Below, in pieces: positions 2,153 through 55,496 of a DNA stretch of 64,000 nucleotides. The notes under the pieces were generated by a model that had not been told where the DNA came from, made no database searches, and was given only the letters and a program-made list of their open reading frames with translations. Origin of the DNA: Eubacteriales bacterium (GTDB lineage Bacteria; Bacillota; Clostridia; Oscillospirales; CAG-272). The position numbers and the translations under genes were made by a program. The stretch covers positions 11,359 to 75,358 of the forward strand of contig JAZQDD010000039.1 of assembly GCA_045546615.1 (NCBI GenBank), given 5' to 3'. How positions within the stretch are numbered: position 1 is the first letter of the stretch; the number at the start of each line of letters is the position of its first letter.

Positions 2153-2168
2153 ATTTATGTTAATTATA

Positions 2169-2252
2169 GGGTTTCTGTGACTGACGGGGGATGTGATGTA
2201 ACACAATGGAACAGAAATCTGTGGAGCATACGCTTTGCCGACCGTCTGGGCA
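2169..2252 (+). promoter_or_regulatory. ZTP (pfl-motif) riboswitch aptamer
   Basis: A GTGACTGACG box and a distal CCGTCTGGGCA box match the pfl consensus GUGACUGGCG ... CCGCCUGGGCA. The pseudoknot pair covaries (GACG:CGTC in place of GGCG:CGCC). The element sits upstream of purine/folate genes. Confidence 0.75.
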
Positions 2253-2286
2253 CATTTATTCTGTGGAATAAGTGCGCCTTTTTAGT
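2248..2286 (+). terminator. riboswitch expression-platform terminator
   Basis: Imperfect hairpin ggcacatttatt/aataagtgcgcc overlapping the GGGCA box, followed by TTTTT. Confidence 0.55.
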
Positions 2287-15266: not shown

Positions 15267-15285
15267 GAATTAACTGAAATAAAGA

Positions 15286-15460
15286 ATAGAGGCGCGACTG
15301 TTCAAAAGTAAGGTTTGTGTAACGCTCGCAACGATTGCAAACACGAAAGGGGAGGTCGCCGAAGGAGCGCGAGGCGAAAGCGTATCCTGGTAACTCGGAC
15401 AATATCCGTTTTACTGTCGTGGACGGCGGTTTGCGCCGTTTTAACGGAGTGCTATCATTA
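15286..15460 (+). promoter_or_regulatory. lysine riboswitch (L-box)
   Basis: AGAGGCGC start, GGGGAGGTCGCCGAAGG core, CTGTCGTGG and GGAGTGCTATC 3' elements. Lies upstream of dapA-dapB-lysA. The expression platform is not clear to me. Confidence 0.8.
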
Positions 15461-15568
15461 TTATTTGAATATACGTCCTCACCAGAGGACCTTCGGTAAT
15501 TGTGGTAGTCGATGTTATATCGGCTATTTTTATTTTTCAGAATAATTATTATTTCAGGAGAAACAGAG

Positions 15569-28931: not shown

Positions 28932-28963
28932 AAAAAGGTGTTTCCATCGGAAACACCTTTTTT
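28932..28963. terminator. bidirectional terminator shared by the membrane-protein gene and rnpB
   Basis: Stem aaaggtgtttcc/ggaaacaccttt flanked by A5 and T6 runs. Confidence 0.7.
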
Positions 28964-29317
28964 GCAAGTTGGCCTGTAAGCCGGGTTCTGTCGAGAACGA
29001 CCATCTGTCTTTGCGTTGCGTCACCGTAACGCTCCGAGGCTTTCGCCCCGTGCCACCCGGAGATATGTGTCGGGCAAACGATCTCCATGCGGTGTTGCTT
29101 CGGATAGGGTTTACAGCGGACCTATGTTACCATAGGAACTGGTGAGCTCTTACCTCGCCTTTCCATCCTTACCCCCAAAGGGGCGGTTTATTTCTGTTGC
29201 ACTTTCCCGGCAGTTGCCTGCGGCTGACGTTATCAGCTATCCTGCCCTGTGAAGCCCGGACTTTCCTCACGGTAATACCTTTCGGCGCAATACCGCGCGG
29301 CCGTTCAGCTAACTTGC
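28964..29317 (-). ncRNA. rnpB: RNase P RNA
   Basis: The reverse complement contains GAGGAAAGTCCGGGC, the universally conserved ACAGAACCCGGCTTA, and a P1 helix gcaagttagc/gccaacttgc. Confidence 0.9.
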
Positions 29318-43178: not shown

Positions 43179-43847
43179 CTACACTTTATTCACTTTCTGC
43201 TTACTATACTTCTTTATCAAAAAGGTAAGACCAAAAAACATTAAGCTACTGCCAACGTTCATGGCTCCTATCCCTGCGAGCAGAACACCTGCAACAAGAG
43301 TCAGGGGGATTGTATTTACAACACAACACCACTTAGGCAAACAAGTTTTACCTTTGATTATGGCAATGAAAAGTGAAATACAAACCATAAATACGCCAAT
43401 ATTGCACAAGGCAGTCGTTACCATTGTTTCGGTGAAAAACGAAATCATAATGTCATGCGCTTCTTTGGTGGCACCGGATTTTACAAAATACCACAACATG
43501 GTTGTGCAAGAGAAATGCATTATTGCGCCTGCGACACAGGTAAATAATGTGCCGACCAATACTACCTTTGATAAGATCTTCGCGGTGGGTTTTAACAGCA
43601 GATAAATCTGATAGTATCCCACCAAAACGAGCATCATAGCAATTGTCCCCGCAATGCCTGAAATTGTAAACTGCAAAGGATTTGCGCCTGTAAGCATGCT
43701 TGATGTTTTGCCGTAGTCAAAAAGCTGGATTGTATCAAGAGGGCCGTTGGGCACAAAGTAGAGCAATAAATCTCCGCCGCCCCAACAAAGCAAATGCCCG
43801 AATGCTCCGAAAAGTAAAAGCTTGGAATTTATCAAACGTCTTTCCAT
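43179..43847 (-). CDS. hypothetical multi-pass membrane protein
   Basis: About 222 aa with 6-7 hydrophobic helices. An ATG at 43847 follows AAAGGAA. Confidence 0.5.
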   Translation of the reverse strand: MERRLINSKLLLFGAFGHLLCWGGGDLLLYFVPNGPLDTIQLFDYGKTSSMLTGANPLQFTISGIAGTIAMMLVLVGYYQIYLLLKPTAKILSKVVLVGTLFTCVAGAIMHFSCTTMLWYFVKSGATKEAHDIMISFFTETMVTTALCNIGVFMVCISLFIAIIKGKTCLPKWCCVVNTIPLTLVAGVLLAGIGAMNVGSSLMFFGLTFLIKKYSKQKVNKV

Positions 43848-43848
43848 T

Positions 43849-44313
43849 TTAATTTTCCTTTTTTTCTCTCTGCTTGAATTTTTCAAGGTCTGTGTTAAGC
43901 AACCTTGCGTCGATAACGCGCTTTATCTTGTGAATAAGAAATACTCCGAGATAAGCAATTATCATATATGCGGCAAATATCAGGCTCACAACGAAATTTT
44001 TTTCAAACCAGCAAAATATATACGACGAGAGTGAATATATTGCCGCTGCTCCTGCAATAACCGCGCAGTCCTTGATGCTTAACTTATCTACGTCATCGAA
44101 ATCCGAGCCGATCAGCATCTGTACCCAACACAGCGCGTACGCAAGCAAGACCATTTCAAGCATATAAAATATGCTTGCATCTTGAAAGCCACATATAAGG
44201 CGGTAGGATGCGTAAAAACACAGAACCATAAAAAACATAAGGCAACATTTTATTTCTACGCCGATTTTTCTCGTTAGATATTTCTCAATAAATGTGCGGA
44301 ATTTGTTACTCAT
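43849..44313 (-). CDS. small membrane protein, DUF3021-like partner of the LytTR regulator
   Basis: About 154 aa with 4 TM segments. Its ATG overlaps the LytTR stop (ATGAGTAA). Confidence 0.55.
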   Translation of the reverse strand: MSNKFRTFIEKYLTRKIGVEIKCCLMFFMVLCFYASYRLICGFQDASIFYMLEMVLLAYALCWVQMLIGSDFDDVDKLSIKDCAVIAGAAAIYSLSSYIFCWFEKNFVVSLIFAAYMIIAYLGVFLIHKIKRVIDARLLNTDLEKFKQREKKEN

Positions 44314-44755
44314 CTTCACTGACTCCTTTAAGCCGCTTTCGGAAGCTTGAAGCATACGTTCTGGAAATTATAATATGCTCACCGTTGTTCATTGTCGCAT
44401 CTATGCGGTTTGACGCGAGACTTTTCAGCCTTCGCACCTTATCTATATTGATAATCATTGATTTACTGCATCTAAAAAAGTTGATAGAGCCAAGTATTTG
44501 CTCAAGCTGTGCCAACGTGAAATCTAGCCTGAACACGTCCGCCTCTGTATACGCAAAGCACTTTCCGTCGACACTCTCGATATACAATATATCCGCGCGC
44601 TCGAGTATCTCTTTTTGCCCACCATTTTCGCCCACGAGCTTCTTCTCATAGCCGTTCATGAAATCAAGGGCGCGCTCTACCTCGTCGTTGATTTCCAGAT
44701 ATTTCAGAATAAGCTCGTTCTCGCCCTCAGATATCTGATGTACGGTAAGCTTCAT
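44306..44755 (-). CDS. stand-alone LytTR-family DNA-binding regulator
   Basis: About 149 aa. Contains ILYIESVDGKCFAYT ... FFRCSKSMIINIDKV (LytTR domain). No receiver domain. Confidence 0.75.
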   Translation of the reverse strand: MKLTVHQISEGENELILKYLEINDEVERALDFMNGYEKKLVGENGGQKEILERADILYIESVDGKCFAYTEADVFRLDFTLAQLEQILGSINFFRCSKSMIINIDKVRRLKSLASNRIDATMNNGEHIIISRTYASSFRKRLKGVSEDE

Positions 44756-44867
44756 TTTCTTCCCCCTTCGTTGACCTTGTAACGTTATTTTATCACCTAA
44801 AATCAATAATGCAATACCCAAAACGGTAAGTGGCACTTTTTGATGCCTCAAAAGCACTGCACAAAAA

Positions 44868-45131: not shown

Positions 45132-45175
45132 CACCGCCGAGAGTAACTAAATGGTTACCCTCGGCGGTGTGTTTC
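45132..45175 (+). terminator. strong hairpin, possible terminator
   Basis: 16-bp stem caccgccgagagtaac/gttaccctcggcggtg (one mismatch) followed by tgtttc. Confidence 0.45.
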
Positions 45176-45672: not shown

Positions 45673-45701
45673 TTGACAAAAGACATAATTGGGGATATAA
45701 T
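45673..45701 (+). promoter_or_regulatory. consensus sigma-A promoter of the Fic-hsd operon
   Basis: TTGACA, 17-nt spacer, TATAAT. Confidence 0.6.
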
Positions 45702-45737: not shown

Positions 45738-46796
45738 ATGCGTAATTACAATTACCAAAACAAATGGCAAAAGTTGCTCACGCCCGAAGTAGTGTCTTTG
45801 TTGACACAGATCCACGAGTGCAAGGGTGAGCAAACGTTATTTATAGAGCAAAAAGCTACTACACTGACTCAGCTTGTTGAGGTTGCTAAAATCCAAAGCA
45901 CAGAGGCATCAAATAAAATCGAGGGCATTTATACCTCAGACGAGCGACTCAAAAGCCTTGTTTCCAACAAGACAACTCCTCGAACAAAAAACGAGCAGGA
46001 AATAGCGGGATATCGCGACGTTCTTTACACTATATGCGAAAGCCACGATTTCATCCCGATGAAGCCATCAATTATATTGCAACTTCACCGCGACCTATAT
46101 AAATTCAGCGGTAAGTCCATCGGAGGATCTTATAAGGAAGCCGATAACGTAATCGCAGAGGAAGACGAGGAAGGGAACAAGCGCGTTCGTTTTGTTCCCG
46201 TATCGGCTTGGGAAACCCCAACAGCTATAGATGGCATATGCAAAGCTTTTGATGAAATGATATCCGATAGCGACGCCGATCCGCTTCTTATAATTCCAAT
46301 GTTTATATTGGATTTTCTGTGCATTCACCCGTTTAACGATGGTAACGGAAGAATGAGCCGATTGCTTACCTTGCTGCTCTTATACCGAGCAGGCTATATT
46401 GTGGGTAAATATATCAGTATCGAAAAGCTGATAGAGCAAACAAAAGAAACCTATTACGAGGCATTACAAAACAGTTCCGCCGGTTGGCACGAGGATAAAA
46501 ACGATTATATTCCCTTTGTGCAGTATACGCTTGGTATCGTTGCCGCGGCATATCGCGAGTTTTCGTCGAGAGTAAAGCTCATTGCCACAAGCAATATGTC
46601 CAAGCCCGAACGCATCAGGGCAATTATACAAGAAACACTTGGTAAAATAACAAAATCAGAAATTATGGAAAAATGCCCCGATATCAGCCAAGTCACGGTA
46701 CAACGAGCACTTAATGAGCTGGTAATAAGCGGAGAAATTTTAAAAATTGGCGGCGGTCGTTATACCGCATACACGTGGAATCACGAAAAGGAGTAA
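45738..46796 (+). CDS. Fic-family protein (AMPylase-type) with a C-terminal winged-helix-like region
   Basis: HPFNDGNGRMSR matches the Fic motif HxFx(D/E)GNGRxxR. 352 aa. Confidence 0.85.
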   Translation: MRNYNYQNKWQKLLTPEVVSLLTQIHECKGEQTLFIEQKATTLTQLVEVAKIQSTEASNKIEGIYTSDERLKSLVSNKTTPRTKNEQEIAGYRDVLYTICESHDFIPMKPSIILQLHRDLYKFSGKSIGGSYKEADNVIAEEDEEGNKRVRFVPVSAWETPTAIDGICKAFDEMISDSDADPLLIIPMFILDFLCIHPFNDGNGRMSRLLTLLLLYRAGYIVGKYISIEKLIEQTKETYYEALQNSSAGWHEDKNDYIPFVQYTLGIVAAAYREFSSRVKLIATSNMSKPERIRAIIQETLGKITKSEIMEKCPDISQVTVQRALNELVISGEILKIGGGRYTAYTWNHEKE

Positions 46797-46799
46797 AAT

Positions 46800-48296
46800 A
46801 TGATTACAGGCGAACTTAAAAATAGAATTGACGGACTTTGGGATGTATTTGCCGCAGGCGGACTTGTAAACCCTCTCGACGTAATTGAGCAGATTACATA
46901 TTTGATGTTCATCCGCGACCTTGACGATACCGATAATCTTCGCGCCAAGGAAGCCGTAATGCTCGGTCTTCCCCATAAAAGCATTTTTGCCGACAAGGTA
47001 AAGGTGGGAGAGCGAGAGATCGACGGAAATCAGCTCAAGTGGTCAGTATTCCACGATTTTCCTGCGGGAAAGATGTATTCTACCGTTCAGGAGTGGGTGT
47101 TCCCGTTTATCAAGAACCTGCACGATAACAAGGATAGTGCATACTCCAAGTATATGGATGATGCCATCTTCAAAATCCCCACCCCCTTGCTTCTCGATAA
47201 AATCGTTACCATTCTTGACGATATCTACTCGCAAATGGCACAGATCAAGGACAGCGACATTCGCGGCGACGTATACGAATACTTACTTTCCAAGATCTCG
47301 CAGTCGGGGCTTAACGGTCAGTTCCGCACCCCTCGTCACATCATTCGTATGATGGTAGAGCTAATGGATCCCCAAGCAGACGAAACAATCTGCGATCCCG
47401 CGTGCGGTACGTCGGGATTTCTCGTCGCGGCGGGGGATTATCTCAAGGAAAAGCGCAAGGAAGAGATTTTCTTCAATAAACAGAAAAAAGCGCACTATAT
47501 GAACGGAATGTTCCACGGCTACGATATGGACAGAACGATGCTCCGCATCGGCGCGATGAACATGATGACGCACGGCGTGGACAATCCGTATATAGAGTAT
47601 CGCGATAGCTTGTCCGATCAGAATCCCGATAAGGAGAAATACTCGCTGATCCTTGCAAATCCCCCCTTCAAGGGCAGCCTTGACTACGATACCGTTTCCG
47701 CAGATCTTCTCAAGGTCTGCAAGACAAAAAAGACCGAGCTTTTGTTCCTCGCGTTGATGCTCCGAATGCTTCGTGTGGGCGGCAGATGTGCAGTTATCGT
47801 TCCCGATGGCGTGCTGTTCGGGTCTTCTACGGCGCATAAGGCTATCCGCAAAGCGATAGTCGATGACAACCGCCTTGAAGCCGTAATTTCCATGCCCTCT
47901 GGCGTATTTAAGCCCTACGCGGGTGTTTCTACGGGAATACTTATCTTCACAAAGACGGGATACGGCGGCACGGACAAGGTGTGGTTTTACGATATGCAAG
48001 CAGACGGCTTCAGCCTTGACGATAAGCGCACCGAGGTCAAGGAAAACGACATTCGTGATATCATCGAACGTTTCCACAATCTTGACGGTGAAGCCGACCG
48101 CGCACGCACAGAAAAATCCTTCTTTGTACCCAAGGACGAGATCGTGCAGAACGACTACGACCTCTCAATAAATAAGTACAAAAAGACCGAATACAAGCCC
48201 GTAGAGTATGCCCCTACCTCACAGATATTGGCAGAGCTGAACGAGCTTGAGAGGGAGATCACCAAAGGACTTGCAGAGTTGGAGGAGATGTTGTGA
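46800..48296 (+). CDS. hsdM: type I restriction-modification system, methyltransferase subunit
   Basis: N-terminal HsdM domain, DPACGTSGFL (motif I) and NPPF (motif IV). Confidence 0.9.
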   Translation: MITGELKNRIDGLWDVFAAGGLVNPLDVIEQITYLMFIRDLDDTDNLRAKEAVMLGLPHKSIFADKVKVGEREIDGNQLKWSVFHDFPAGKMYSTVQEWVFPFIKNLHDNKDSAYSKYMDDAIFKIPTPLLLDKIVTILDDIYSQMAQIKDSDIRGDVYEYLLSKISQSGLNGQFRTPRHIIRMMVELMDPQADETICDPACGTSGFLVAAGDYLKEKRKEEIFFNKQKKAHYMNGMFHGYDMDRTMLRIGAMNMMTHGVDNPYIEYRDSLSDQNPDKEKYSLILANPPFKGSLDYDTVSADLLKVCKTKKTELLFLALMLRMLRVGGRCAVIVPDGVLFGSSTAHKAIRKAIVDDNRLEAVISMPSGVFKPYAGVSTGILIFTKTGYGGTDKVWFYDMQADGFSLDDKRTEVKENDIRDIIERFHNLDGEADRARTEKSFFVPKDEIVQNDYDLSINKYKKTEYKPVEYAPTSQILAELNELEREITKGLAELEEML

Positions 48297-49438
48297 TGGC
48301 GAGATTGGGAGATATATTTACTATTTCCTCAGGCGGAACCCCAAATAAAAACGAGTTGTCTTATTATAAGGGGGGCAGTATACCTTGGGTAAAAACTGGA
48401 GACTTAAAGGATAAGTACATATCAAAAGAAATTGAGTGTATTACCGAGGAAGGATTGAGCAATAGTTCGGCGAAACTTTTCCCGCAAGATACCGTTTTGG
48501 TTGCTATGTATGGGGCGACAATTGGTGCTTGTTCTATTCTTCCTTATGAGGCTGCTACTAATCAGGCATGTGCTGCGTTTTTGCCTTGCAAGGATGTTAT
48601 TCCAGAATATTTATTTTATTTTCTGAGTGGCAGAAAGGATCAATTTATAAAGGATGGTGTCGGTGGAGCACAGCCAAACATTTCCGCAGGGTATCTAAAA
48701 AATGTAAAATTCGATCTTGTTTCACTTGGTGAGCAGCAAAAAGTAATAGATAGATTAAGTAAAGTTGATGATCTCATATCTTTTCGCAAACAGCAACTTT
48801 CAAAATTGGACGAGCTTGTCAAATCCCGATTTATCGAACTGTTTGGAGATCCAGAACAGAACCCGAATGGCTATCCGATTAAGGACTTCGATGAAATCAG
48901 CGTACTAATAACTGACGGTGAGCATGCAACGCCTCGTCGAACAGAAAAAGGCATATATCTCTTGTCAGCGCGCAATGTTCTTAATCACGCACTTCAGTTG
49001 GACGATGTAGACTACATTGACGAAGATGAGTATGCCCGTATCGCTCGACGCGTTGTTCCGCAGGCAGGTGATATCCTTGTTTCTTGCTCTGGGAGCATTG
49101 GAAGATGTTGCGTCGTACCCGATGGACTGCAATTTCAAATGGTTAGAAGCGCGGCATTGATTCGATTTGATGATACCATCAATCCCGTTTTTGCAGAATG
49201 GCTTATAACCTCCGATGAACTGCAACGGCAAATTGCCCAGTCAGCAACCCAATCTTCGCAGGCGAACTTGTTCCAAGGTAAGATACGAAAATTACATGGG
49301 TATGTACCTCCAATGGAGCTTCAACAGCAATTTGCGGCCTTCGTCGAACAGACCCACAAATCAAAATTGGTAATTCAAAAGAGCCTTGAAAAGCTCGAAA
49401 CACTAAAAAAAGCATTGATGCAAAATTATTTTGGGTGA
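48296..49438 (+). CDS. hsdS: type I restriction-modification system, specificity subunit
   Basis: Two target-recognition halves, each followed by a conserved helical spacer (SLGEQQKVIDRL..., PPMELQQQFAAFVEQ...). Its start overlaps the hsdM stop (GTGATG). Confidence 0.85.
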   Translation: MARLGDIFTISSGGTPNKNELSYYKGGSIPWVKTGDLKDKYISKEIECITEEGLSNSSAKLFPQDTVLVAMYGATIGACSILPYEAATNQACAAFLPCKDVIPEYLFYFLSGRKDQFIKDGVGGAQPNISAGYLKNVKFDLVSLGEQQKVIDRLSKVDDLISFRKQQLSKLDELVKSRFIELFGDPEQNPNGYPIKDFDEISVLITDGEHATPRRTEKGIYLLSARNVLNHALQLDDVDYIDEDEYARIARRVVPQAGDILVSCSGSIGRCCVVPDGLQFQMVRSAALIRFDDTINPVFAEWLITSDELQRQIAQSATQSSQANLFQGKIRKLHGYVPPMELQQQFAAFVEQTHKSKLVIQKSLEKLETLKKALMQNYFG

Positions 49439-49449
49439 GGTGAAGGAAA

Positions 49450-50082
49450 ATGAAACTTTATAAGATTACCGCAATTATTTCTTTTATTGTATTTGGAGTA
49501 TGCTTGCTATGCTCCGTGATTTTGGGATTCATACCATCTGAAAACAATACGTGGATTATACTGTTGCAAAACTATGCAGTAGGTATTGCATGTAGTATAT
49601 TAGTGGTTATTATCACTACTTTACTACAATTTAATTTTGAACAGCAAAAAGAAAAAAATAAACTAATATCAGATATTCGCACTTTGTTTTTGCACTATTA
49701 TTTATCTGTATTAAGCGCCGATCCAAATGAAAAGACCTCTCAACAAATGTGGAATCATTATTATGATCGCATTGAATCCTGCATTGATGATATTTCAACG
49801 TGCTTGTCAAATCTGGATTGGTTTAGAAAGAAGCATCTAAACAATGCTAATGATATACATTATGCTGTTTTACAGTTGAGAATCAGTCTGTACAAAAATA
49901 ATAGACAATCAAAAGAAGATGCAGTAAGAAGTATTCTCAATCATTCTGCTTTTGACGATATAGAAGAAAAGTCGCTTTTATACGCTAAAAACGATTATGA
50001 TAAAAAAAGTATTGAAGAATATAGCGATAAAGCTAAAGAAGAAATAGAAAAATTGTCTAATAATCATAGCAATAATAAATAA
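49450..50082 (+). CDS. hypothetical 2-TM protein (AT-rich insert, gene 1)
   Basis: 210 aa. Two N-terminal hydrophobic helices (about residues 6-28 and 35-61), then a charged helical tail. No family recognised. Confidence 0.6.
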   Translation: MKLYKITAIISFIVFGVCLLCSVILGFIPSENNTWIILLQNYAVGIACSILVVIITTLLQFNFEQQKEKNKLISDIRTLFLHYYLSVLSADPNEKTSQQMWNHYYDRIESCIDDISTCLSNLDWFRKKHLNNANDIHYAVLQLRISLYKNNRQSKEDAVRSILNHSAFDDIEEKSLLYAKNDYDKKSIEEYSDKAKEEIEKLSNNHSNNK

Positions 50083-50097
50083 TAATGTGGAGTAAAA

Positions 50098-51333
50098 ATG
50101 AAAATACAAGTAATAAGTTATGAAAAAAGTATTAAATATGGTATCGAACATAATTATACATATTCATCGCTAAATGAGCCGCGTGCGTTTGATGAATTTG
50201 ATATAAACATTATTTCTTTGCAAACCGAGTGGTTATGGCGGTATAATGTCAATAGACAATCCTCAATTAATGCAATTAAAGATTTTGATAGCCTACAAGT
50301 GTTAATTGGCGATGTAAAAAAATCAATTGTCATAATATGCTTTCCTCAAAACTATAGATATAAGTATTCTTATTCTGGTGGCAGTTATAATAGGTCAGAG
50401 CAATTAAAAGATATGATTCCTTACTTGAAAGATTATCTACAACACCTTTTAGGGAATCGAAGCAGTTATGATTTGGTTTATGAGAATTCAACCACATCAT
50501 GCAACAAATCCGAAATCAAAGCGGCATTTTATTTTAAAAACATTCCAATCGCCGAAAAATCATTGACTGAAAGCAATGGTGGAAATCATATTACAACCGT
50601 AAAGCTCGATGCCAATATAATTCTCACAACTTTAGATATCTCTGATAGTAATGCACCCATTAGTGATCTGTTAAGTGCAATGGGATTAATCTACAGCAAT
50701 AAAGATATTCCTGAATGGATGAATGATTATAGGTGCTTCGATGATGCCGAACAAGAAATGCGTATAGAAGCAGCAAATGAGGAGATAGACAAGCAACAAA
50801 AGATTATTGATGAAGCCAAGGAAAAATTGGATAAAAACTTATACTACAAAAGCGTTCTATATACAAACGGTTCAGCTCTTGTGGAATCAGTTTTTGATAT
50901 GTTAGAAAAAATGTTAGGTTGCGATTTGTCAGGCTTTGTTGACAAAAAAGAAGAAGACTTTAAAATTATTTTACCAAAAGTTACTTTCATCGGTGAAATA
51001 AAAGGTATCGGTTCTAATGTTAAAAATGAAAATGTATCTCAGTTAGATCTTCATTGCCAAACATATCAAGATTATTTGGATACCGAGGGCTTAACAGAAA
51101 AAGTCAAGGGGATTTTAATCATCAATCCGTTAAGAAGTAAACCTCCTAGAGACAGAGATGATGTACACGAAAAGCAGATAGAGCTTGCTAAACGCTACGG
51201 TAGCTTAATTATTACGACAGAAATTCTTTTGCTTTTATTTGAAGCATATCTCGCTGGAAAAGTTTCAAGTGAGAGAATTCTTGAATTATTTATTAGTGAA
51301 ACAGGTTTGTTAACTGTTCCTGATTTTATTTAA
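50098..51333 (+). CDS. hypothetical protein with a central coiled coil and a PD-(D/E)XK-like C-terminal region (AT-rich insert, gene 2)
   Basis: 411 aa. Contains EEDFKIILPKVTFIGEIKG (D-x13-E-x-K) followed by SQLDLHCQTYQDY. No family recognised. Confidence 0.6.
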   Translation: MKIQVISYEKSIKYGIEHNYTYSSLNEPRAFDEFDINIISLQTEWLWRYNVNRQSSINAIKDFDSLQVLIGDVKKSIVIICFPQNYRYKYSYSGGSYNRSEQLKDMIPYLKDYLQHLLGNRSSYDLVYENSTTSCNKSEIKAAFYFKNIPIAEKSLTESNGGNHITTVKLDANIILTTLDISDSNAPISDLLSAMGLIYSNKDIPEWMNDYRCFDDAEQEMRIEAANEEIDKQQKIIDEAKEKLDKNLYYKSVLYTNGSALVESVFDMLEKMLGCDLSGFVDKKEEDFKIILPKVTFIGEIKGIGSNVKNENVSQLDLHCQTYQDYLDTEGLTEKVKGILIINPLRSKPPRDRDDVHEKQIELAKRYGSLIITTEILLLLFEAYLAGKVSSERILELFISETGLLTVPDFI

Positions 51334-51352: not shown

Positions 51353-54300
51353 ATGACCAACTTTGATTTCCTAAAAAACACCCCCGATTTTGATGCGTTT
51401 GCGGACGTGGCGATCTCGGCGGAGAAAATATTACATATTGACGTGGACGCTTGCGTGCTGAATTGCCGCAGGGCAATGGAGTTTGCAGTCAAATGGATGT
51501 ATTCCGTGGACCGCGATCTCGTCATGCCATATCAGGACAACCTCGTCAGCCTTATGAACGACGAAAAGTTCCGCGACATTATTGGCGCGGACGTCTGGAG
51601 GCGTATGGAATTTATCCGCAAGCTCGGCAACAATGCGGCTCACGGCGGCAAAAAGGTGAGCCTCGAGCAAGCGGAGCTTTGCCTTGAAAACTTATTTGTT
51701 TTCCTTGACTGTGTGGCATATTTCTACGCTCCCGAATACACCGAGCAGCAGTTTGATAAGTCCTTGCTTGCGCTTACGGTGGACGAGGCTCTTTCCTTCG
51801 TTCCCGAAAACGATATCGATATTGCCAAGCTGATCGAGGAAAACAAAGCGCTCAAGGATGAGCTTACTGCGCGACGCGCCGAACAGCAGCAGACCTACGT
51901 TCCCAAGCCGCTTGAGCTTTCGGAATACAAGACGAGAAAGATATACATCGACTTTATGCTTGCCGATGCGGGCTGGGTCGAGGGCAAGGATTGGGTTAAC
52001 GAGGTAGAGCTTCACGGCATGCCCAACGCAAGCGGTGTAGGCTACGCCGACTACGTTCTCTATGGCGACGACGGTAAGCCCCTCGCGGTTCTTGAAGCGA
52101 AGCGCACCTGTATGGACGTTTCAAAGGGCAGACAGCAGGCGAAGCTGTATGCCGACCTGTTAGAGCAGAAATACGGTCGCAGACCTATCATTTTCCTCTC
52201 CAACGGCTTTGATACGCACGTTTGGAATGATAAATACTACCCCGAGCGCAAGGTTGCGTCTGTTTACTCAAAGCGCGACCTTGAAAAGCTTTTCAATCTG
52301 CACACGATGCGTGCAAGCCTCAAAAACGTGGTGGTTGACAAGCACATTGCGGGACGCTACTATCAAGAGGCTGCTATTAAGGCTGTTTGTGAGGCGTTTG
52401 ACAAAAAGAATCGCCGCAAGGCGCTTCTCGTTATGGCAACGGGCTCGGGCAAGACGAGAACGGTCATTGCTCTTTGCAAGGCGTTGCTTGATCACGGTTG
52501 GGTAAAGAATATTCTGTTCCTTGCCGACCGCAATTCGCTCGTCACGCAGGCAAAGCGCGCCTTTGCCAATATGCTTCCCGACCTTTCTGTAACCAATCTT
52601 TGCGAGGATAAGGCGAACTTTGATTCCCGATGCGTATTCTCAACTTATCAGACCATGATGGGTTGTATTGATACCGTCAAGGACGAGAATGACAAAAAGC
52701 TCTTTACCGTTGGACATTTTGATCTCGTCATTGTGGACGAGGCGCACCGTTCTATCTATAACAAGTACAAGGATATTTTTAACTATTTCGATGCGCCGCT
52801 TGTGGGACTTACCGCAACGCCGAAGGACGAAATAGATAAAAATACTTATGAGATATTTGAGCTCGAAAACGGTGTTCCGACCTATGGCTATGAGCTTGGA
52901 CAAGCAGTTACCGACGGCTTTCTTGTTGACTTTATGTCTGTTGAAAGCAAGCTGAAATTCATCGAGGAAGGCATCGTATACGACGACCTTTCCGATGAGG
53001 ACAAGGAAGAATACGAAAACACTTTCGATGATGAAAACGGTAATCATCCAGAAAGGATCTCGTCTTCCGCCATTAATGAGTGGGTGTTTAATGAGGACAC
53101 CATTCGTCAGGTGATTCATATCCTGATGCAGGACGGTTTGCGCATCGATTACGGCGAAAAGCTGGGAAAGACGATCATCTTTGCCAAAAACCACGAGCAT
53201 GCCGAAAAGATTCACGAGATATTTGGAAAAGAATATCCCAATCTTCCCGGTTACACGAAGGTCATTGACAACTATATGACTTATGCGCAGAGCGCAATAG
53301 ACGAGTTTTCCGATCCCAAAAAGTTACCGCAGATAGCAATCTCCGTCGATATGCTTGACACAGGAATCGACGTCCCCGAAGTGCTCAACCTCGTCTTCTT
53401 CAAAAAAGTGATGAGCAAGGCAAAGTTCTGGCAGATGATAGGACGCGGTACCCGTCGTTGTGACGGACTTATGGACGGCAAAGACAAGGATAAATTCTAT
53501 ATTTTCGATTTTTGCGGAAATTTTGAATTTTTCCGTATGAACAATGGCAAGCCAACTGCCAATCAGGTTGCTCTGCAGGGCGCTATCTTTAAGCTTAAGG
53601 CACAGATCGCATTCAAGCTGCAGGACATTGCTTATCAAACGACGGATTTGATCGCTTTCCGCAAGTCTTTGGTTGATGACATGGTGCGCAAGGTGCGTGA
53701 GTTGAATAAAGAGAATTTTGCTGTTCGGCAGCATCTTCGCTACGTTGAGCAATATGCCGATCCCGACAACTATAATTCGCTGACTTACGAGGATACTCTC
53801 TTGATGTCAGAAGAGATTGCTCCGTTGATCACCCCCGATGAAGACGAAGCCTCTGCGGTTCGTTTTGACGCTTTAATGTATGGCATCGAGCTTGCGTATC
53901 TTGCGGGCAAGAAATATTCGCGTGCGCGTGCCGATCTTTACAAAAAGGTCAGCGGAATTGCAAGCGTGGCAAACATTCCCGAAATCATGGCTCAATCGGA
54001 ACTCATCAATAAAATTTTGCATACCAATTATTTGGATACTGCGGGAATCAACGAGTTTGAGCATATCCGCGAGAATCTTCGCAATTTGATGAAATATATT
54101 CCCAGAACCGTTGCGAAGTATATTACGGATTTCGATGATGAAATTCTTTCTGTGGAATGGAACGAATCCGATCTTGAAAACGATGACCTGAAGAACTACA
54201 AAGCCAAAGCCGAATTCTATATTCGTCAGCATCAAGACGAGGAGGCAATTGCTAAGTTGAAGAGCAACGTTCCCTTGAATGCAGATGATATCAAGGCCTT

Positions 54301-54649
54301 GGAACGCATTATGTGGAGCGAGGTCGGAAGCAGAAAGGACTACGAAGCGGAATACGGAGAAAAACCTCTCGGTGAGTTCGTGCGAGAAATTGTAGGACTC
54401 GATATGATGGCGGCAAAAGAAGCGTTTGCGGAGTATTTGAATGACGTTAATCTTGATGCAGATCAGATTTATTTTGTCAACCAAATCGTTGAGTATATTG
54501 TACACAATGGTGTGATGAAAGATATGTCCGTGCTTCAAGAGCCTCCGTTTACCGATAGAGGAAGTATCGTTGAAGTCTTTACCGATATTTCAGTTTGGTT
54601 GGGTATAAGGAGCGTCATTGAGAAAATCAATGCAAACGCCGCGGCATAA
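51353..54649 (+). CDS. hsdR: type I restriction-modification system, restriction/helicase subunit with an N-terminal DUF4145-like extension
   Basis: 1098 aa. Contains GYADYVLYGDDGKPLAVLEAKR (nuclease motif), MATGSGKT and VDEAH (SF2 helicase). Confidence 0.9.
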   Translation: MTNFDFLKNTPDFDAFADVAISAEKILHIDVDACVLNCRRAMEFAVKWMYSVDRDLVMPYQDNLVSLMNDEKFRDIIGADVWRRMEFIRKLGNNAAHGGKKVSLEQAELCLENLFVFLDCVAYFYAPEYTEQQFDKSLLALTVDEALSFVPENDIDIAKLIEENKALKDELTARRAEQQQTYVPKPLELSEYKTRKIYIDFMLADAGWVEGKDWVNEVELHGMPNASGVGYADYVLYGDDGKPLAVLEAKRTCMDVSKGRQQAKLYADLLEQKYGRRPIIFLSNGFDTHVWNDKYYPERKVASVYSKRDLEKLFNLHTMRASLKNVVVDKHIAGRYYQEAAIKAVCEAFDKKNRRKALLVMATGSGKTRTVIALCKALLDHGWVKNILFLADRNSLVTQAKRAFANMLPDLSVTNLCEDKANFDSRCVFSTYQTMMGCIDTVKDENDKKLFTVGHFDLVIVDEAHRSIYNKYKDIFNYFDAPLVGLTATPKDEIDKNTYEIFELENGVPTYGYELGQAVTDGFLVDFMSVESKLKFIEEGIVYDDLSDEDKEEYENTFDDENGNHPERISSSAINEWVFNEDTIRQVIHILMQDGLRIDYGEKLGKTIIFAKNHEHAEKIHEIFGKEYPNLPGYTKVIDNYMTYAQSAIDEFSDPKKLPQIAISVDMLDTGIDVPEVLNLVFFKKVMSKAKFWQMIGRGTRRCDGLMDGKDKDKFYIFDFCGNFEFFRMNNGKPTANQVALQGAIFKLKAQIAFKLQDIAYQTTDLIAFRKSLVDDMVRKVRELNKENFAVRQHLRYVEQYADPDNYNSLTYEDTLLMSEEIAPLITPDEDEASAVRFDALMYGIELAYLAGKKYSRARADLYKKVSGIASVANIPEIMAQSELINKILHTNYLDTAGINEFEHIRENLRNLMKYIPRTVAKYITDFDDEILSVEWNESDLENDDLKNYKAKAEFYIRQHQDEEAIAKLKSNVPLNADDIKALERIMWSEVGSRKDYEAEYGEKPLGEFVREIVGLDMMAAKEAFAEYLNDVNLDADQIYFVNQIVEYIVHNGVMKDMSVLQEPPFTDRGSIVEVFTDISVWLGIRSVIEKINANAAA

Positions 54650-54666
54650 AATGCTTGGAGGATATA

Positions 54667-55038
54667 ATGACCAAACAATCTTTCCTTGAATACTGCCTTA
54701 ATACATACGGCACATCGCCGGACTATCCGTTTGACGAGGATTTTGAGACGGCGGTATTGAGGCACGGTGACAATCGCAAGTGGTATGCCATTGTAATGAA
54801 GGTCGCACGGCGAAAGTTTGGGTTTGACAGCGACGAGGTTATCGACGTTGTAAATCTAAAGCTCCCAACAGAGATGTTCGGCTCATTCGGCGCAATCGAC
54901 GGAGTCTATCCCGCGTACCACATGAACAAACGCCATTGGATATCTGTCCTTCTTCCCGACGCTCCCGACGAGGTGGTGCAGTTCCTTGTAAGCGTTAGCT
55001 TCGAGGCTACAAAATCTTCTAAGAAAAAATCAAAATAA
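54667..55038 (+). CDS. MmcQ/YjbR-family protein
   Basis: YPFDEDFETAVLRH ... NRKWYAIVM ... HMNKRHWISV. An ATG at 54667 follows GGAGGA. Confidence 0.75.
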   Translation: MTKQSFLEYCLNTYGTSPDYPFDEDFETAVLRHGDNRKWYAIVMKVARRKFGFDSDEVIDVVNLKLPTEMFGSFGAIDGVYPAYHMNKRHWISVLLPDAPDEVVQFLVSVSFEATKSSKKKSK

Positions 55039-55097
55039 GTCTGGACTTTTGCCATCTCCTGTGGTATTGTGTTGTGCTACAGGAGGTGGCAAAAATT

Positions 55098-55370
55098 ATG
55101 AACGTTATAAACGAGCTATGGTACGGCAACATATCGCCGTGCGATGGTGGAGCGAAGAAGGGAAGCGGGTATTTGGAACTTCTCGGCTACGTCGCGCGAC
55201 ACAAGGGAGAGCTACAAAAACGGCTGAACGGCGAAGAAAAAGAAATCCTTGAAAAGCTCATCGATTGTACCAACGAGATGTACGGCATCTCCGAGAGGGA
55301 AGCCTTCGCGCAAGGTTTCACGCTCGGCGCGAGGCTCATCATCGAGGTGATGACGGCTGAGCTTGAATAA
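55098..55370 (+). CDS. small hypothetical protein
   Basis: 90 aa (MNVINELWYGNISP...). Its RBS AGGAGG lies inside a 14-bp hairpin. Confidence 0.5.
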   Translation: MNVINELWYGNISPCDGGAKKGSGYLELLGYVARHKGELQKRLNGEEKEILEKLIDCTNEMYGISEREAFAQGFTLGARLIIEVMTAELE

Positions 55371-55496
55371 CCCCCAGAGGAATCGCAAAATCATCTGCGA
55401 TTCCTCATCTTTTTCTCTATTCTCGCTGGACTTTTGCGTTTTTATGTTTATACTTGTGCCTCGCCGCGAAAGGCGTGCTCGGAAAGGAAAAAACAT

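Follow-up and report, generated by a model that had tools for sequence, protein, structure and literature searches.

What are the two AT-rich genes that lie between hsdS and hsdR in a type I restriction-modification (R-M) operon of a Eubacteriales bacterium, do they belong together, and could they be defence genes? The DNA analysed, hereafter the window, is a stretch of 64,000 nucleotides (nt) from contig JAZQDD010000039.1, in which two open reading frames (ORFs), here called gene 1 and gene 2, fill the hsdS-hsdR interval (Table 1). An initial annotation, made by reading the sequence, had described them as a two-gene cassette of foreign origin in which a membrane sensor is paired with a nuclease. 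The feature proved to be real and its description accurate; the notions of a paired cassette and of a foreign insertion turned out to be wrong or too specific. The explanation that we favour, with a little better than even confidence, is that the interval is a swappable slot occupied by two unrelated, co-transcribed single-gene passengers, gene 2 being a sensor-nuclease and gene 1 an R-M-coupled membrane accessory.

The placement of both ORFs between hsdS and hsdR was borne out, and the flanking genes are type I R-M genes by their Pfam matches (Methylase_S for hsdS, N6_Mtase/HsdM_N for hsdM and ResIII/HSDR_N/EcoEI_R_C for hsdR). Related loci, numbered here with the prefix L, were then compared with the window. 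Backbones whose HsdM and HsdR proteins are 87-92% and 83-90% identical to those of the window carry differing cargo at this position: gene 2 alone in L001, gene 1 alone in L082-84, AbiH together with gene 2 in L033, and six genes, AbiH and HEPN_AbiU2 among them, in L013. Gene 2 on such backbones is 42-66% identical to that of the window, about as divergent as HsdS, and the position taken by gene 1 in the window is exactly that taken by gene 2 in L001, L059 and L067. Alignment of the junctions showed that the edges of the slot are fixed. On the left, the 3′ end of hsdS (...ATGCAAAATTATTTTGGG-TGA) is kept across loci, and a ribosome-binding site common to the loci, GGTGA/GGAGA, stands after this end (...ATGCARAAATAYTTYGGN-TGA) regardless of which cargo gene comes first. 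On the right, the slot is bounded by the conserved 5′ end of hsdR (ATGACCAACTTTGATTTCCT); the hsdR start ATGACCAACTTTGA is kept at the DNA level across loci and closes the slot, with ATGACCAACTTTGATTTYCT as the closing edge in the junction alignment. We collected 45 other cargo proteins from this slot and from a smaller one between hsdM and hsdS. About half of them are without annotation, and the named ones comprise AbiH (four times), HEPN_AbiU2, RhuM/PDC-S05, PDC-S23, PDC-M13A/B, DUF4062, YafQ/RelB, DUF559 and an MTES_1575 endonuclease, in keeping with the earlier remark that the setting is shared with abortive-infection and other defence genes. The cargo of both slots is co-oriented throughout. 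We conclude that the hsdS-hsdR interval is a standing, recombination-swappable cargo slot of this hsd lineage. With nucleotide-conserved boundaries on a backbone conserved at 83-92%, it constitutes a natural cassette-exchange site that can be mined for further cargo. Type I R-M operons in general often hold nested genes, of which 96.7% are co-oriented and over half lack an assigned function (10.1101/2024.01.29.577857).

The low G+C content of the interval had been read as the mark of a specific foreign insertion. The hand counts behind that reading (15/60, 18/60, 36/60 and 29/60) were all exact on recount, and whole-gene values are 0.294 for gene 1 and 0.323 for gene 2, compared with 0.49 for hsdM, 0.42 for hsdS and 0.47 for hsdR. 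Nevertheless, low G+C is typical of gene 2 everywhere and of all slot cargo: in all hsd loci, as well as in stand-alone loci and phages, gene 2 lies 10-20 points under its surroundings, and the cargo of L013 is all similarly AT-rich. Since every context examined shows gene 2 to be more AT-rich than the DNA around it, its composition is not evidence of a recent event, and we rejected low G+C as a sign of recent insertion.

The smaller slot between hsdM and hsdS is used in L003, L013, L020, L021, L033, L059, L063, L082-84, L108 and L111. Its cargo consists of ORFs of 110-340 amino acids (aa), with RhuM in L013 and L111, a bestrophin-like protein in L083 and many unannotated genes. In the window this slot is empty.

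Whether gene 1 and gene 2 form a pair was assessed in 63 genomic gene 2 loci from species-level genomes, in which hsd linkage was scored by tblastn with the proteins of the window's lineage. A gene 1 relative stood beside gene 2 in one of the 63 (L063), where the order hsdS-gene1-gene2-hsdR recurs with alleles 26% and 36% identical to those of the window. Gene 2 was found in none of the eight other distinct gene 1 contexts, gene 1 in none of the 20 viral gene 2 loci, and no gene 1 relative was detected in IMG/VR viral contigs or in a scan of JGI metagenomes. On near-identical backbones each of the two can be the sole occupant of the slot, gene 2 in L001 and gene 1 in L082-84. The co-occurrence and co-inheritance of an obligate two-gene system are therefore not seen, and the comparison of related hsdMSR loci, which the initial annotation had itself proposed, shows that the two genes do not always travel together. 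The two families travel separately, so that neither a two-gene cassette nor a sensor paired with a nuclease describes the locus: gene 1 and gene 2 are separate passengers from unrelated, unnamed families.

That no named family can be given to either protein agrees with what had been noted at the outset. Searches of Pfam, NCBIfam and PHROGs with both proteins returned sub-threshold noise only, and the 5,027 models of PADLOC-DB v2.0.0 yielded not one family at E≤1; no significant match to any family, defence or non-defence, came from the Pfam and PADLOC scans. PDB sequence searches with the full gene 2 profile and with its C-terminal domain alone gave nothing at E≤10. Gene 2 is nevertheless part of a large family. 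It has more than 300 close homologs, and a profile search gathered 2,288 representatives at 50% clustering, nearly all of them 400-430 aa long and matched over their full length, with a patchy distribution across many phyla.

The AlphaFold2 (AF2) model of gene 2, computed from a 49-sequence alignment, has a mean predicted local distance difference test score (pLDDT) of 91.8 and a predicted template modelling score (pTM) of 0.52, the latter in keeping with two domains that have no defined orientation to each other. The N-terminal region, which had been described as about 200 aa without a recognisable motif, is in the model a well-folded alpha/beta domain. Its best fold in a Foldseek search of the PDB, for residues ~1-200, is that of GMP synthase subunit A (2a9v), a class I glutamine amidotransferase (GATase; E=2e-5, TM(target) 0.46-0.49, probability 1.0), with a root-mean-square deviation (rmsd) of 7-9 Å that makes this a fold-level likeness only. 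The conserved residues of the domain are Q4, D32, W47, P83, N85, K104 and F144. Across 54 homologs, every Cys or His column in residues 1-200 stays below 50% conservation, and thus the Cys-His-Glu triad that amidotransferases carry on a nucleophile elbow is absent. After a disordered stretch at residues 200-203, the model continues with a long helix bearing heptad-spaced Ile/Leu residues at 223, 230, 237 and 244, of which I230 and I237 are at least 90% conserved; this helix is a putative dimerisation or connector element. Both peptide stretches quoted in the initial annotation are present, the heptad-like one running from residue 218.

The C-terminal part of gene 2 had been likened to PD-(D/E)XK nucleases, and prediction with AlphaFold followed by Foldseek, as proposed there, returned a restriction-endonuclease core. 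pLDDT exceeds 90 across residues 258-411, and the best structural matches of this region are the FokI cleavage domain (E=6e-5, probability 1.0) and the Nt.BspD6I nickase (rmsd 3.0-3.5 Å over ~130 columns, probability 1.0), with rmsd values of 3.0-4.8 Å for the two together. In a viral structure library the matches were proteins annotated as 'restriction endonuclease' or Mrr. With FokI and Nt.BspD6I, gene 2 has in common a single-active-site PD-(D/E)XK core with a D...(D/E)-x-K signature. The motif had been given as D-x13-E-x-K; it is indeed present (EEDF...GEIKG), the true spacing being D287-x12-E300-x-K302, and it lies on predicted strands 288-291 and 296-303. D282, D287, E300, K302, Q315, R353 and E382 are invariant in 54 of 54 full-length homologs that share 32-66% identity. 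Hence both the core fold, in the predicted structure, and the conserved signature of the PD-(D/E)XK superfamily are found, although no curated sequence model of the superfamily matches, and we regard the domain as a predicted FokI-like PD-(D/E)XK nuclease domain. A RecB/Cas4-type assignment, as first suggested, did not hold. FokI-type domains are closer, Q315 is invariant but Y323 occurs in only 45 of 54 homologs, the family lacks a conserved Cys cluster, Pfam gave neither a PD-(D/E)XK nor a Cas4 match, and a Cas4-like protein appeared in the viral structure library only at E=0.12.

Two candidates that came up around gene 2 were discarded. Cdn1 (8z4i) was matched by Foldseek with a probability of 0.25 and an rmsd of 28 Å, and its paper shows a ribonuclease activated by cyclic oligoadenylate; a 416-aa ORF at the end of L018, taken at first for a homolog, is the N-terminus of HsdR. 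In four loci only C-terminal or internal fragments of gene 2 are present (L066 10016-10642, L080 1693-2058, L081 10001-10222 and L079 10001-10813), which suggests decay or truncation in some lineages.

Gene 2 lies between hsdS and hsdR in ~21 of the 63 genomic loci, and two of these embedded loci belong to a different type I lineage, with an HsdR 36% identical. Among 134 neighbour proteins of the non-hsd copies there was no recurrent partner, no family being met more than 3-4 times; they include Type II methyltransferases, DpnII, a Type ISP enzyme, AbiD, MADS components, PbeA and SoFic, as well as resolvases and integrases. Embedded and stand-alone copies are intermixed in the clustering of the family, 13 of 54 nearest neighbours having switched context. 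Gene 2 was also present on 20 viral contigs, where it stands between a transcriptional/late regulator and the terS-terL-portal module. A phage survey anchored on terS comprised 64 related loci (L113-L176), of which ~50 had enough upstream sequence; in these the regulator-terS interval is hypervariable, and gene 2 occupies it in only three. This hotspot, ~0.2-2 kb 5′ of terS and after a ~140-aa regulator, was observed on siphophage-like contigs with terS 65-100% identical. Its 57 alternative occupants include a dGTPase (PADLOC 4e-91), TIR and DUF4062 proteins, AbiL-like ATPases, a RelA/SpoT protein with a Panacea antitoxin, PDC-S31/S66, CapH/CapP-like regulators, SPFH, two-transmembrane (2-TM) and DUF6731 proteins and many unknown genes. 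About four of 42 stand-alone gene 2 loci share neighbours with the viral contigs, a figure that is a lower bound because terminases are diverse. A literature search for a defence hotspot between regulator and terS found nothing directly relevant, and neither did one for FokI-like single-gene defences; the hotspot can be mined for new prophage-encoded defences. Gene 2 thus occurs in two unrelated hotspots shared with defence genes, which makes it interchangeable with recognised defence genes. In genomic terms it behaves as a single-gene defence cassette, without a partner or a cognate methyltransferase.

The gene 1 family is small, with ~58 relatives or clusters found only by profile search. 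Its AF2 model (pLDDT 88.4, pTM 0.79) has two transmembrane (TM) helices followed by a cytoplasmic helical bundle, in agreement with the two N-terminal hydrophobic helices and helical tail recognised before. Lysines at the N-terminus and after TM2 fit an N-in/C-in topology. TM2 extends into a long helix and carries an invariant, unusually polar pattern (G-x-A-C-S-xx-VV-xx-TT-xx-Q-F-K-x-EQ), which argues against a simple anchor and for a functional helix that would oligomerise or line a pore. Comparison with SLATT and other named 2-TM defence effectors gave no match, and Pfam returned noise at the level of holin (0.045) and ABC2 (0.064). All nine distinct contexts of gene 1 are R-M-linked. Seven are hsdS-hsdR gaps of the DUF4145 type, in six of which gene 1 starts 9-11 nt past the hsdS stop, often with AbiH as the next gene. 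In another, gene 1 comes after the hsdR-YgjP-T5orf172 cluster of a different type I system on a mobilisable element, and in the last, that of a divergent subgroup, an MmeI-type enzyme immediately precedes it. Gene 1 is thus repeatedly linked to defence systems, in a small sample; since gene 1 was found only beside R-M systems, we infer that it is R-M-coupled. In the MmeI-type contexts a 470-aa protein without Pfam match follows the gene 1 relative (L085 5222-6634, L087 1042-2454); its gene may be either a partner or additional cargo.

We then compared the two proteins with known systems. The Type IIS enzymes FokI and Nt.BspD6I, which resemble the cleavage domain of gene 2, differ from it in the rest of the protein: gene 2 has neither their three-part winged-helix DNA-recognition domain nor a partner methyltransferase, and has the GATase-like N-terminus instead. 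Shedu (SduA, DUF4263) is a single protein that combines a variable N-terminal sensor with a C-terminal PD-(D/E)XK nuclease. Gene 2 is alike in being one polypeptide of ~400 aa that joins a putative regulatory domain at its N-terminus to a C-terminal domain of restriction-endonuclease fold, and in having no methyltransferase. In contrast to Shedu, it has no PADLOC Shedu or Pfam DUF4263 match and a different N-domain fold, and Shedu structures were absent from the top 50 Foldseek PDB matches. PrrC of EcoprrI, an anticodon nuclease, sits between hsdS and hsdR, the position of the cargo in the window, and is alike in being co-transcribed cargo. It is almost exclusively embedded in type I R-M loci (Payne et al., 10.1101/2024.01.29.577857), a pattern that gene 1 parallels. 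However, operon position is all that is shared: neither protein has the ABC-ATPase or anticodon-nuclease domain of PrrC, no ATPase or PrrC/RloC match being found with Pfam or PADLOC, gene 1 is a membrane protein and gene 2 lies mostly outside R-M operons. The closest setting is that of the HEC/PDC 'guilt-by-embedding' candidates of Payne et al. (2024), which are likewise co-oriented unknown genes in type I R-M loci beside Abi genes, but neither of our proteins matches the PDC/HEC models of PADLOC-DB v2.0.0 at E≤1. Both families come almost entirely from metagenome-assembled genomes of uncultured gut and rumen Clostridia, which screens based on RefSeq would under-sample.

How could the favoured explanation work? 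Gene 2 would be an autonomous sensor-nuclease, its triad-less GATase-like N-domain serving as the regulatory or ligand-sensing domain, and the nuclease would be kept inactive until that domain is triggered. FokI makes a double-strand break only when two cleavage domains pair. Gene 2 could dimerise via its heptad helix, its cleavage domains or both; two cleavage domains, with one active site per chain, would then pair as in FokI and cut DNA, and the outcome would be that the invader is restricted or the infection aborted. Gene 1 would act as an R-M-coupled accessory, most likely as a membrane-acting abortive effector. A bolder version, which we think rather unlikely as a whole, is that gene 1 represents an R-M-dependent guard family and gene 2 a new class of dead-GATase sensor-nuclease. 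By analogy with PrrC, gene 1 may be silenced by an intact R-M enzyme, either type I or MmeI-type, and may permeabilise the membrane when a phage anti-restriction factor disables that enzyme; PrrC's logic would then be retained with a membrane effector in place of the anticodon nuclease. The GATase-like domain of gene 2, in turn, may have found a new use in sensing a small molecule or a protein and thereby licensing dimeric cleavage in the manner of FokI.

Several other explanations were weighed against this one. Gene 2 could be a Type IV modification-dependent restriction endonuclease, whose N-domain would recognise modified phage DNA, with cleavage left to the FokI-like domain. The idea is a more specific version of the favoured explanation, in which gene 2 would complement the attack of the type I enzyme on unmodified DNA, and we give it a small but real chance. 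It is consistent with the lack of a cognate methyltransferase, methyltransferases being found in only 2-4 of the 134 neighbours of non-hsd copies, since an ordinary Type II-like restriction endonuclease would then be self-toxic. GmrSD/BrxU-like type IV enzymes are moreover frequently embedded in type I R-M and BREX loci (Payne et al., 10.1101/2024.01.29.577857), and a GmrSD gene stands directly 3′ of hsdR in L108. However, the N-domain is unlike the SRA, EVE/ASCH/PUA and winged-helix readers in the Foldseek lists, gene 2 has no NTPase domain, and the data do not separate a modification-dependent nuclease from an infection-triggered abortive one. Alternatively, gene 2 could be a selfish homing-type endonuclease or a phage accessory nuclease that spreads by cutting empty sites and brings the host no benefit. 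A stand-alone gene with low G+C everywhere and a patchy distribution across many phyla would suit such an element, and so would its tight intergenic sites directly 5′ of highly conserved gene starts (hsdR, terS), the intermixing of embedded and solo copies with a context switch in 13 of 54 nearest neighbours, and the truncated remnants in L066, L080 and L081. What makes this improbable in our view is that the same slots hold many unrelated genes, mostly recognisable defence or toxin genes, so that slot behaviour is not driven by gene 2. Furthermore, the strongly conserved N-domain cannot be recognised as any DNA-binding module, a single conserved specificity could not target hsdR and terS loci alike, and the full-length architecture is kept in 2,288 representatives.

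The remaining alternatives tie the genes to the hsd enzyme or to each other. One or both of them could serve the type I enzyme as accessory subunits or regulators, acting as a second nuclease, a membrane tether or a factor in restriction alleviation. Co-transcription with hsdMSR, the R-M linkage of gene 1 in nine of nine contexts and the embedding of about one third of the genomic gene 2 loci at the same position speak for this. We hold it to be distinctly improbable, given that HsdR keeps its own nuclease motif (D...EAK in the translation) and full domain set by Pfam, that near-identical hsd backbones lack one or other gene, that most gene 2 copies, those of phages included, have no hsd genes nearby, and that one gene 1 subgroup adjoins an MmeI-type enzyme, which belongs to a different R-M class. 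Finally, the two genes could form one two-component module, a membrane sensor or effector working with a nuclease, as the initial annotation had it. They are adjacent, co-oriented and 15 nt apart in the window, and the same order recurs in L063 with divergent alleles. This explanation is largely refuted by co-occurrence and is most improbable: gene 1 is missing from 62 of 63 genomic and all 20 viral gene 2 loci, gene 2 is missing from all eight other gene 1 contexts, and either gene can be alone in the slot on near-identical backbones (L001, L082).

The explanation of two independent passengers in a swappable slot also has points against it. For gene 2, similarity to FokI is undetectable in sequence, the PDB sequence searches having been empty, so that the nuclease assignment rests on the predicted structure together with the geometry and conservation of the motif; hhalign of the family profile against the FokI cleavage domain gave a probability of 0.2% and paired only one segment, the helix after the motif (SQLD-H-Q-Y with GQADEMQRY of FokI). 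The GATase match of the N-domain is moderate, by TM score and rmsd alike, and the role given to the domain is a guess. About two thirds of the gene 2 loci count as 'non-hsd' by tblastn with the window's lineage, a class in which some may adjoin R-M systems of other types, and housekeeping genes are also found among the neighbours. For gene 1, a Foldseek search of the PDB matched generic helical bundles only (best E=0.034), and the nine distinct contexts all come from gut/rumen Clostridia-type assemblies. A functional interaction of the two genes is possible, because L063 has the same order.

Judged by these features, both proteins are credible candidates for new single-gene defences, of a kind that is already known, namely R-M-embedded. 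The enrichment of new defences among unknown genes nested in type I R-M operons has already been described, so that no new category is at issue; what the finding adds is two delimited candidates that current annotation and defence-finder resources have missed. Gene 2 stands out by its large family, confident model, unreported domain combination, invariant motif and presence in two unrelated hotspots, and a cultured carrier of a homolog, Erysipelothrix inopinata DSM 15511 (NZ_CP060715, locus L076), makes experiments feasible. The gene 1 family may open a way to study the back-up or monitoring of R-M enzymes.

Table 1. Features of the hsd operon and of the two passenger genes, in window coordinates. 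aa, residues of the encoded protein.
Feature	Position	Strand	Basis or remark
Candidate operon promoter	45673..45701	+	TTGACA-17-TATAAT, 12/12 sigma-70-type match, upstream of Fic gene
Fic/SoFic-like gene	45738..46796	+	Pfam Fic 1.7e-14; PADLOC SoFic 1.8e-38
hsdM, type I methyltransferase subunit	46800..48296	+	Pfam N6_Mtase 4.9e-67, HsdM_N; NPPF motif in translation
hsdS, specificity subunit, two target-recognition domains	48293..49438	+	Pfam Methylase_S, two stretches
Slot junction GGTGAAGGAAA with Shine-Dalgarno motif	49439..49449	+	
Gene 1, membrane protein, 210 aa	49450..50082	+	ORF and AF2 model
Gene 1 TM1, ~aa 3-26	49456-49527	+	
Gene 1 TM2, ~aa 34-61	49549-49632	+	
Gene 2, 411 aa	50098..51333	+	ORF and AF2 model
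Gene 2 N-terminal alpha/beta domain, aa 1-195	50098..50682	+	AF2, Foldseek
Gene 2 long helix, aa 216-254	50743..50859	+	AF2
Gene 2 C-terminal nuclease-like domain, aa 258-411, and stop codon	50869..51333	+	AF2, Foldseek
Candidate catalytic codon D287	50956-50958	+	
Candidate catalytic codon E300	50995-50997	+	
Candidate catalytic codon K302	51001-51003	+	
hsdR with N-terminal DUF4145	51353..54649	+	Pfam DUF4145, HSDR_N, ResIII, EcoEI_R_C
Operon tail, YjbR	54655-55038	+	
Operon tail, DUF6809	55074-55370	+	
Intrinsic-terminator-like hairpin	55377..55406	+	11 pairs, 6 G-C, then T-run

The initial annotation had held that genes 1 and 2 must be co-transcribed with the hsd genes. Its spacer lengths for hsdS/gene 1/gene 2/hsdR (11, 15 and 19 nt) were confirmed by recount, and Shine-Dalgarno motifs (AGGA, GGAG and GGAGG) lie 6-8 nt 5′ of the ATG of gene 1, gene 2 and hsdR, respectively. 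The candidate promoter and the strong terminator-like hairpin, the latter being the likely end of the operon, frame the whole, and a terminator search found no convincing terminator in the hsdS-hsdR stretch. Together these signals make co-transcription plausible, which is less than the original wording. An 11/12 sigma-70-like match (TTGACA-16-TAAAAT) is located inside gene 2 at 50939-50966, near the D287 codon, and could allow some independent transcription of hsdR; the region is AT-rich, and its 29 promoter-like sites are not clearly above the 22 ± 4.6 of shuffled sequences.

The Fic gene is the conserved first gene of this operon lineage, precedes hsdM in most related loci with 56-84% identity and ends 3 nt before hsdM in the window; it may be a fixed fifth component of the operon rather than cargo. 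hsdM and hsdS overlap by 4 nt. In HsdR, DUF4145 spans residues ~23-113 (51353-51700), ahead of the HSDR_N nuclease and helicase modules. This N-terminus is common to every hsdR of the lineage, and in L007 it is a separate ORF of 102 aa. The tail of YjbR and DUF6809 also follows hsdR in L013 (11930-12780). DUF6809 further occurs immediately 3′ of a gene 1 relative in an unrelated type I setting (L109 6762-7028; L109/L110), and it may itself be R-M-associated.

Elsewhere in the window, a class A RNase P RNA (28961-29316, minus strand), a lysine riboswitch (15279-15462, plus strand) and a ZMP/ZTP riboswitch (2167-2258, plus strand), all called at Rfam gathering thresholds, are ordinary features of chromosomes and speak for a chromosomal setting. 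On the opposite strand just 5′ of the operon lie genes for a LytTR DNA-binding protein (44306-44857) and a DUF6796 membrane protein (43179-43886), which are parted from the operon by a strong, bidirectional-looking terminator hairpin at 45132-45169.

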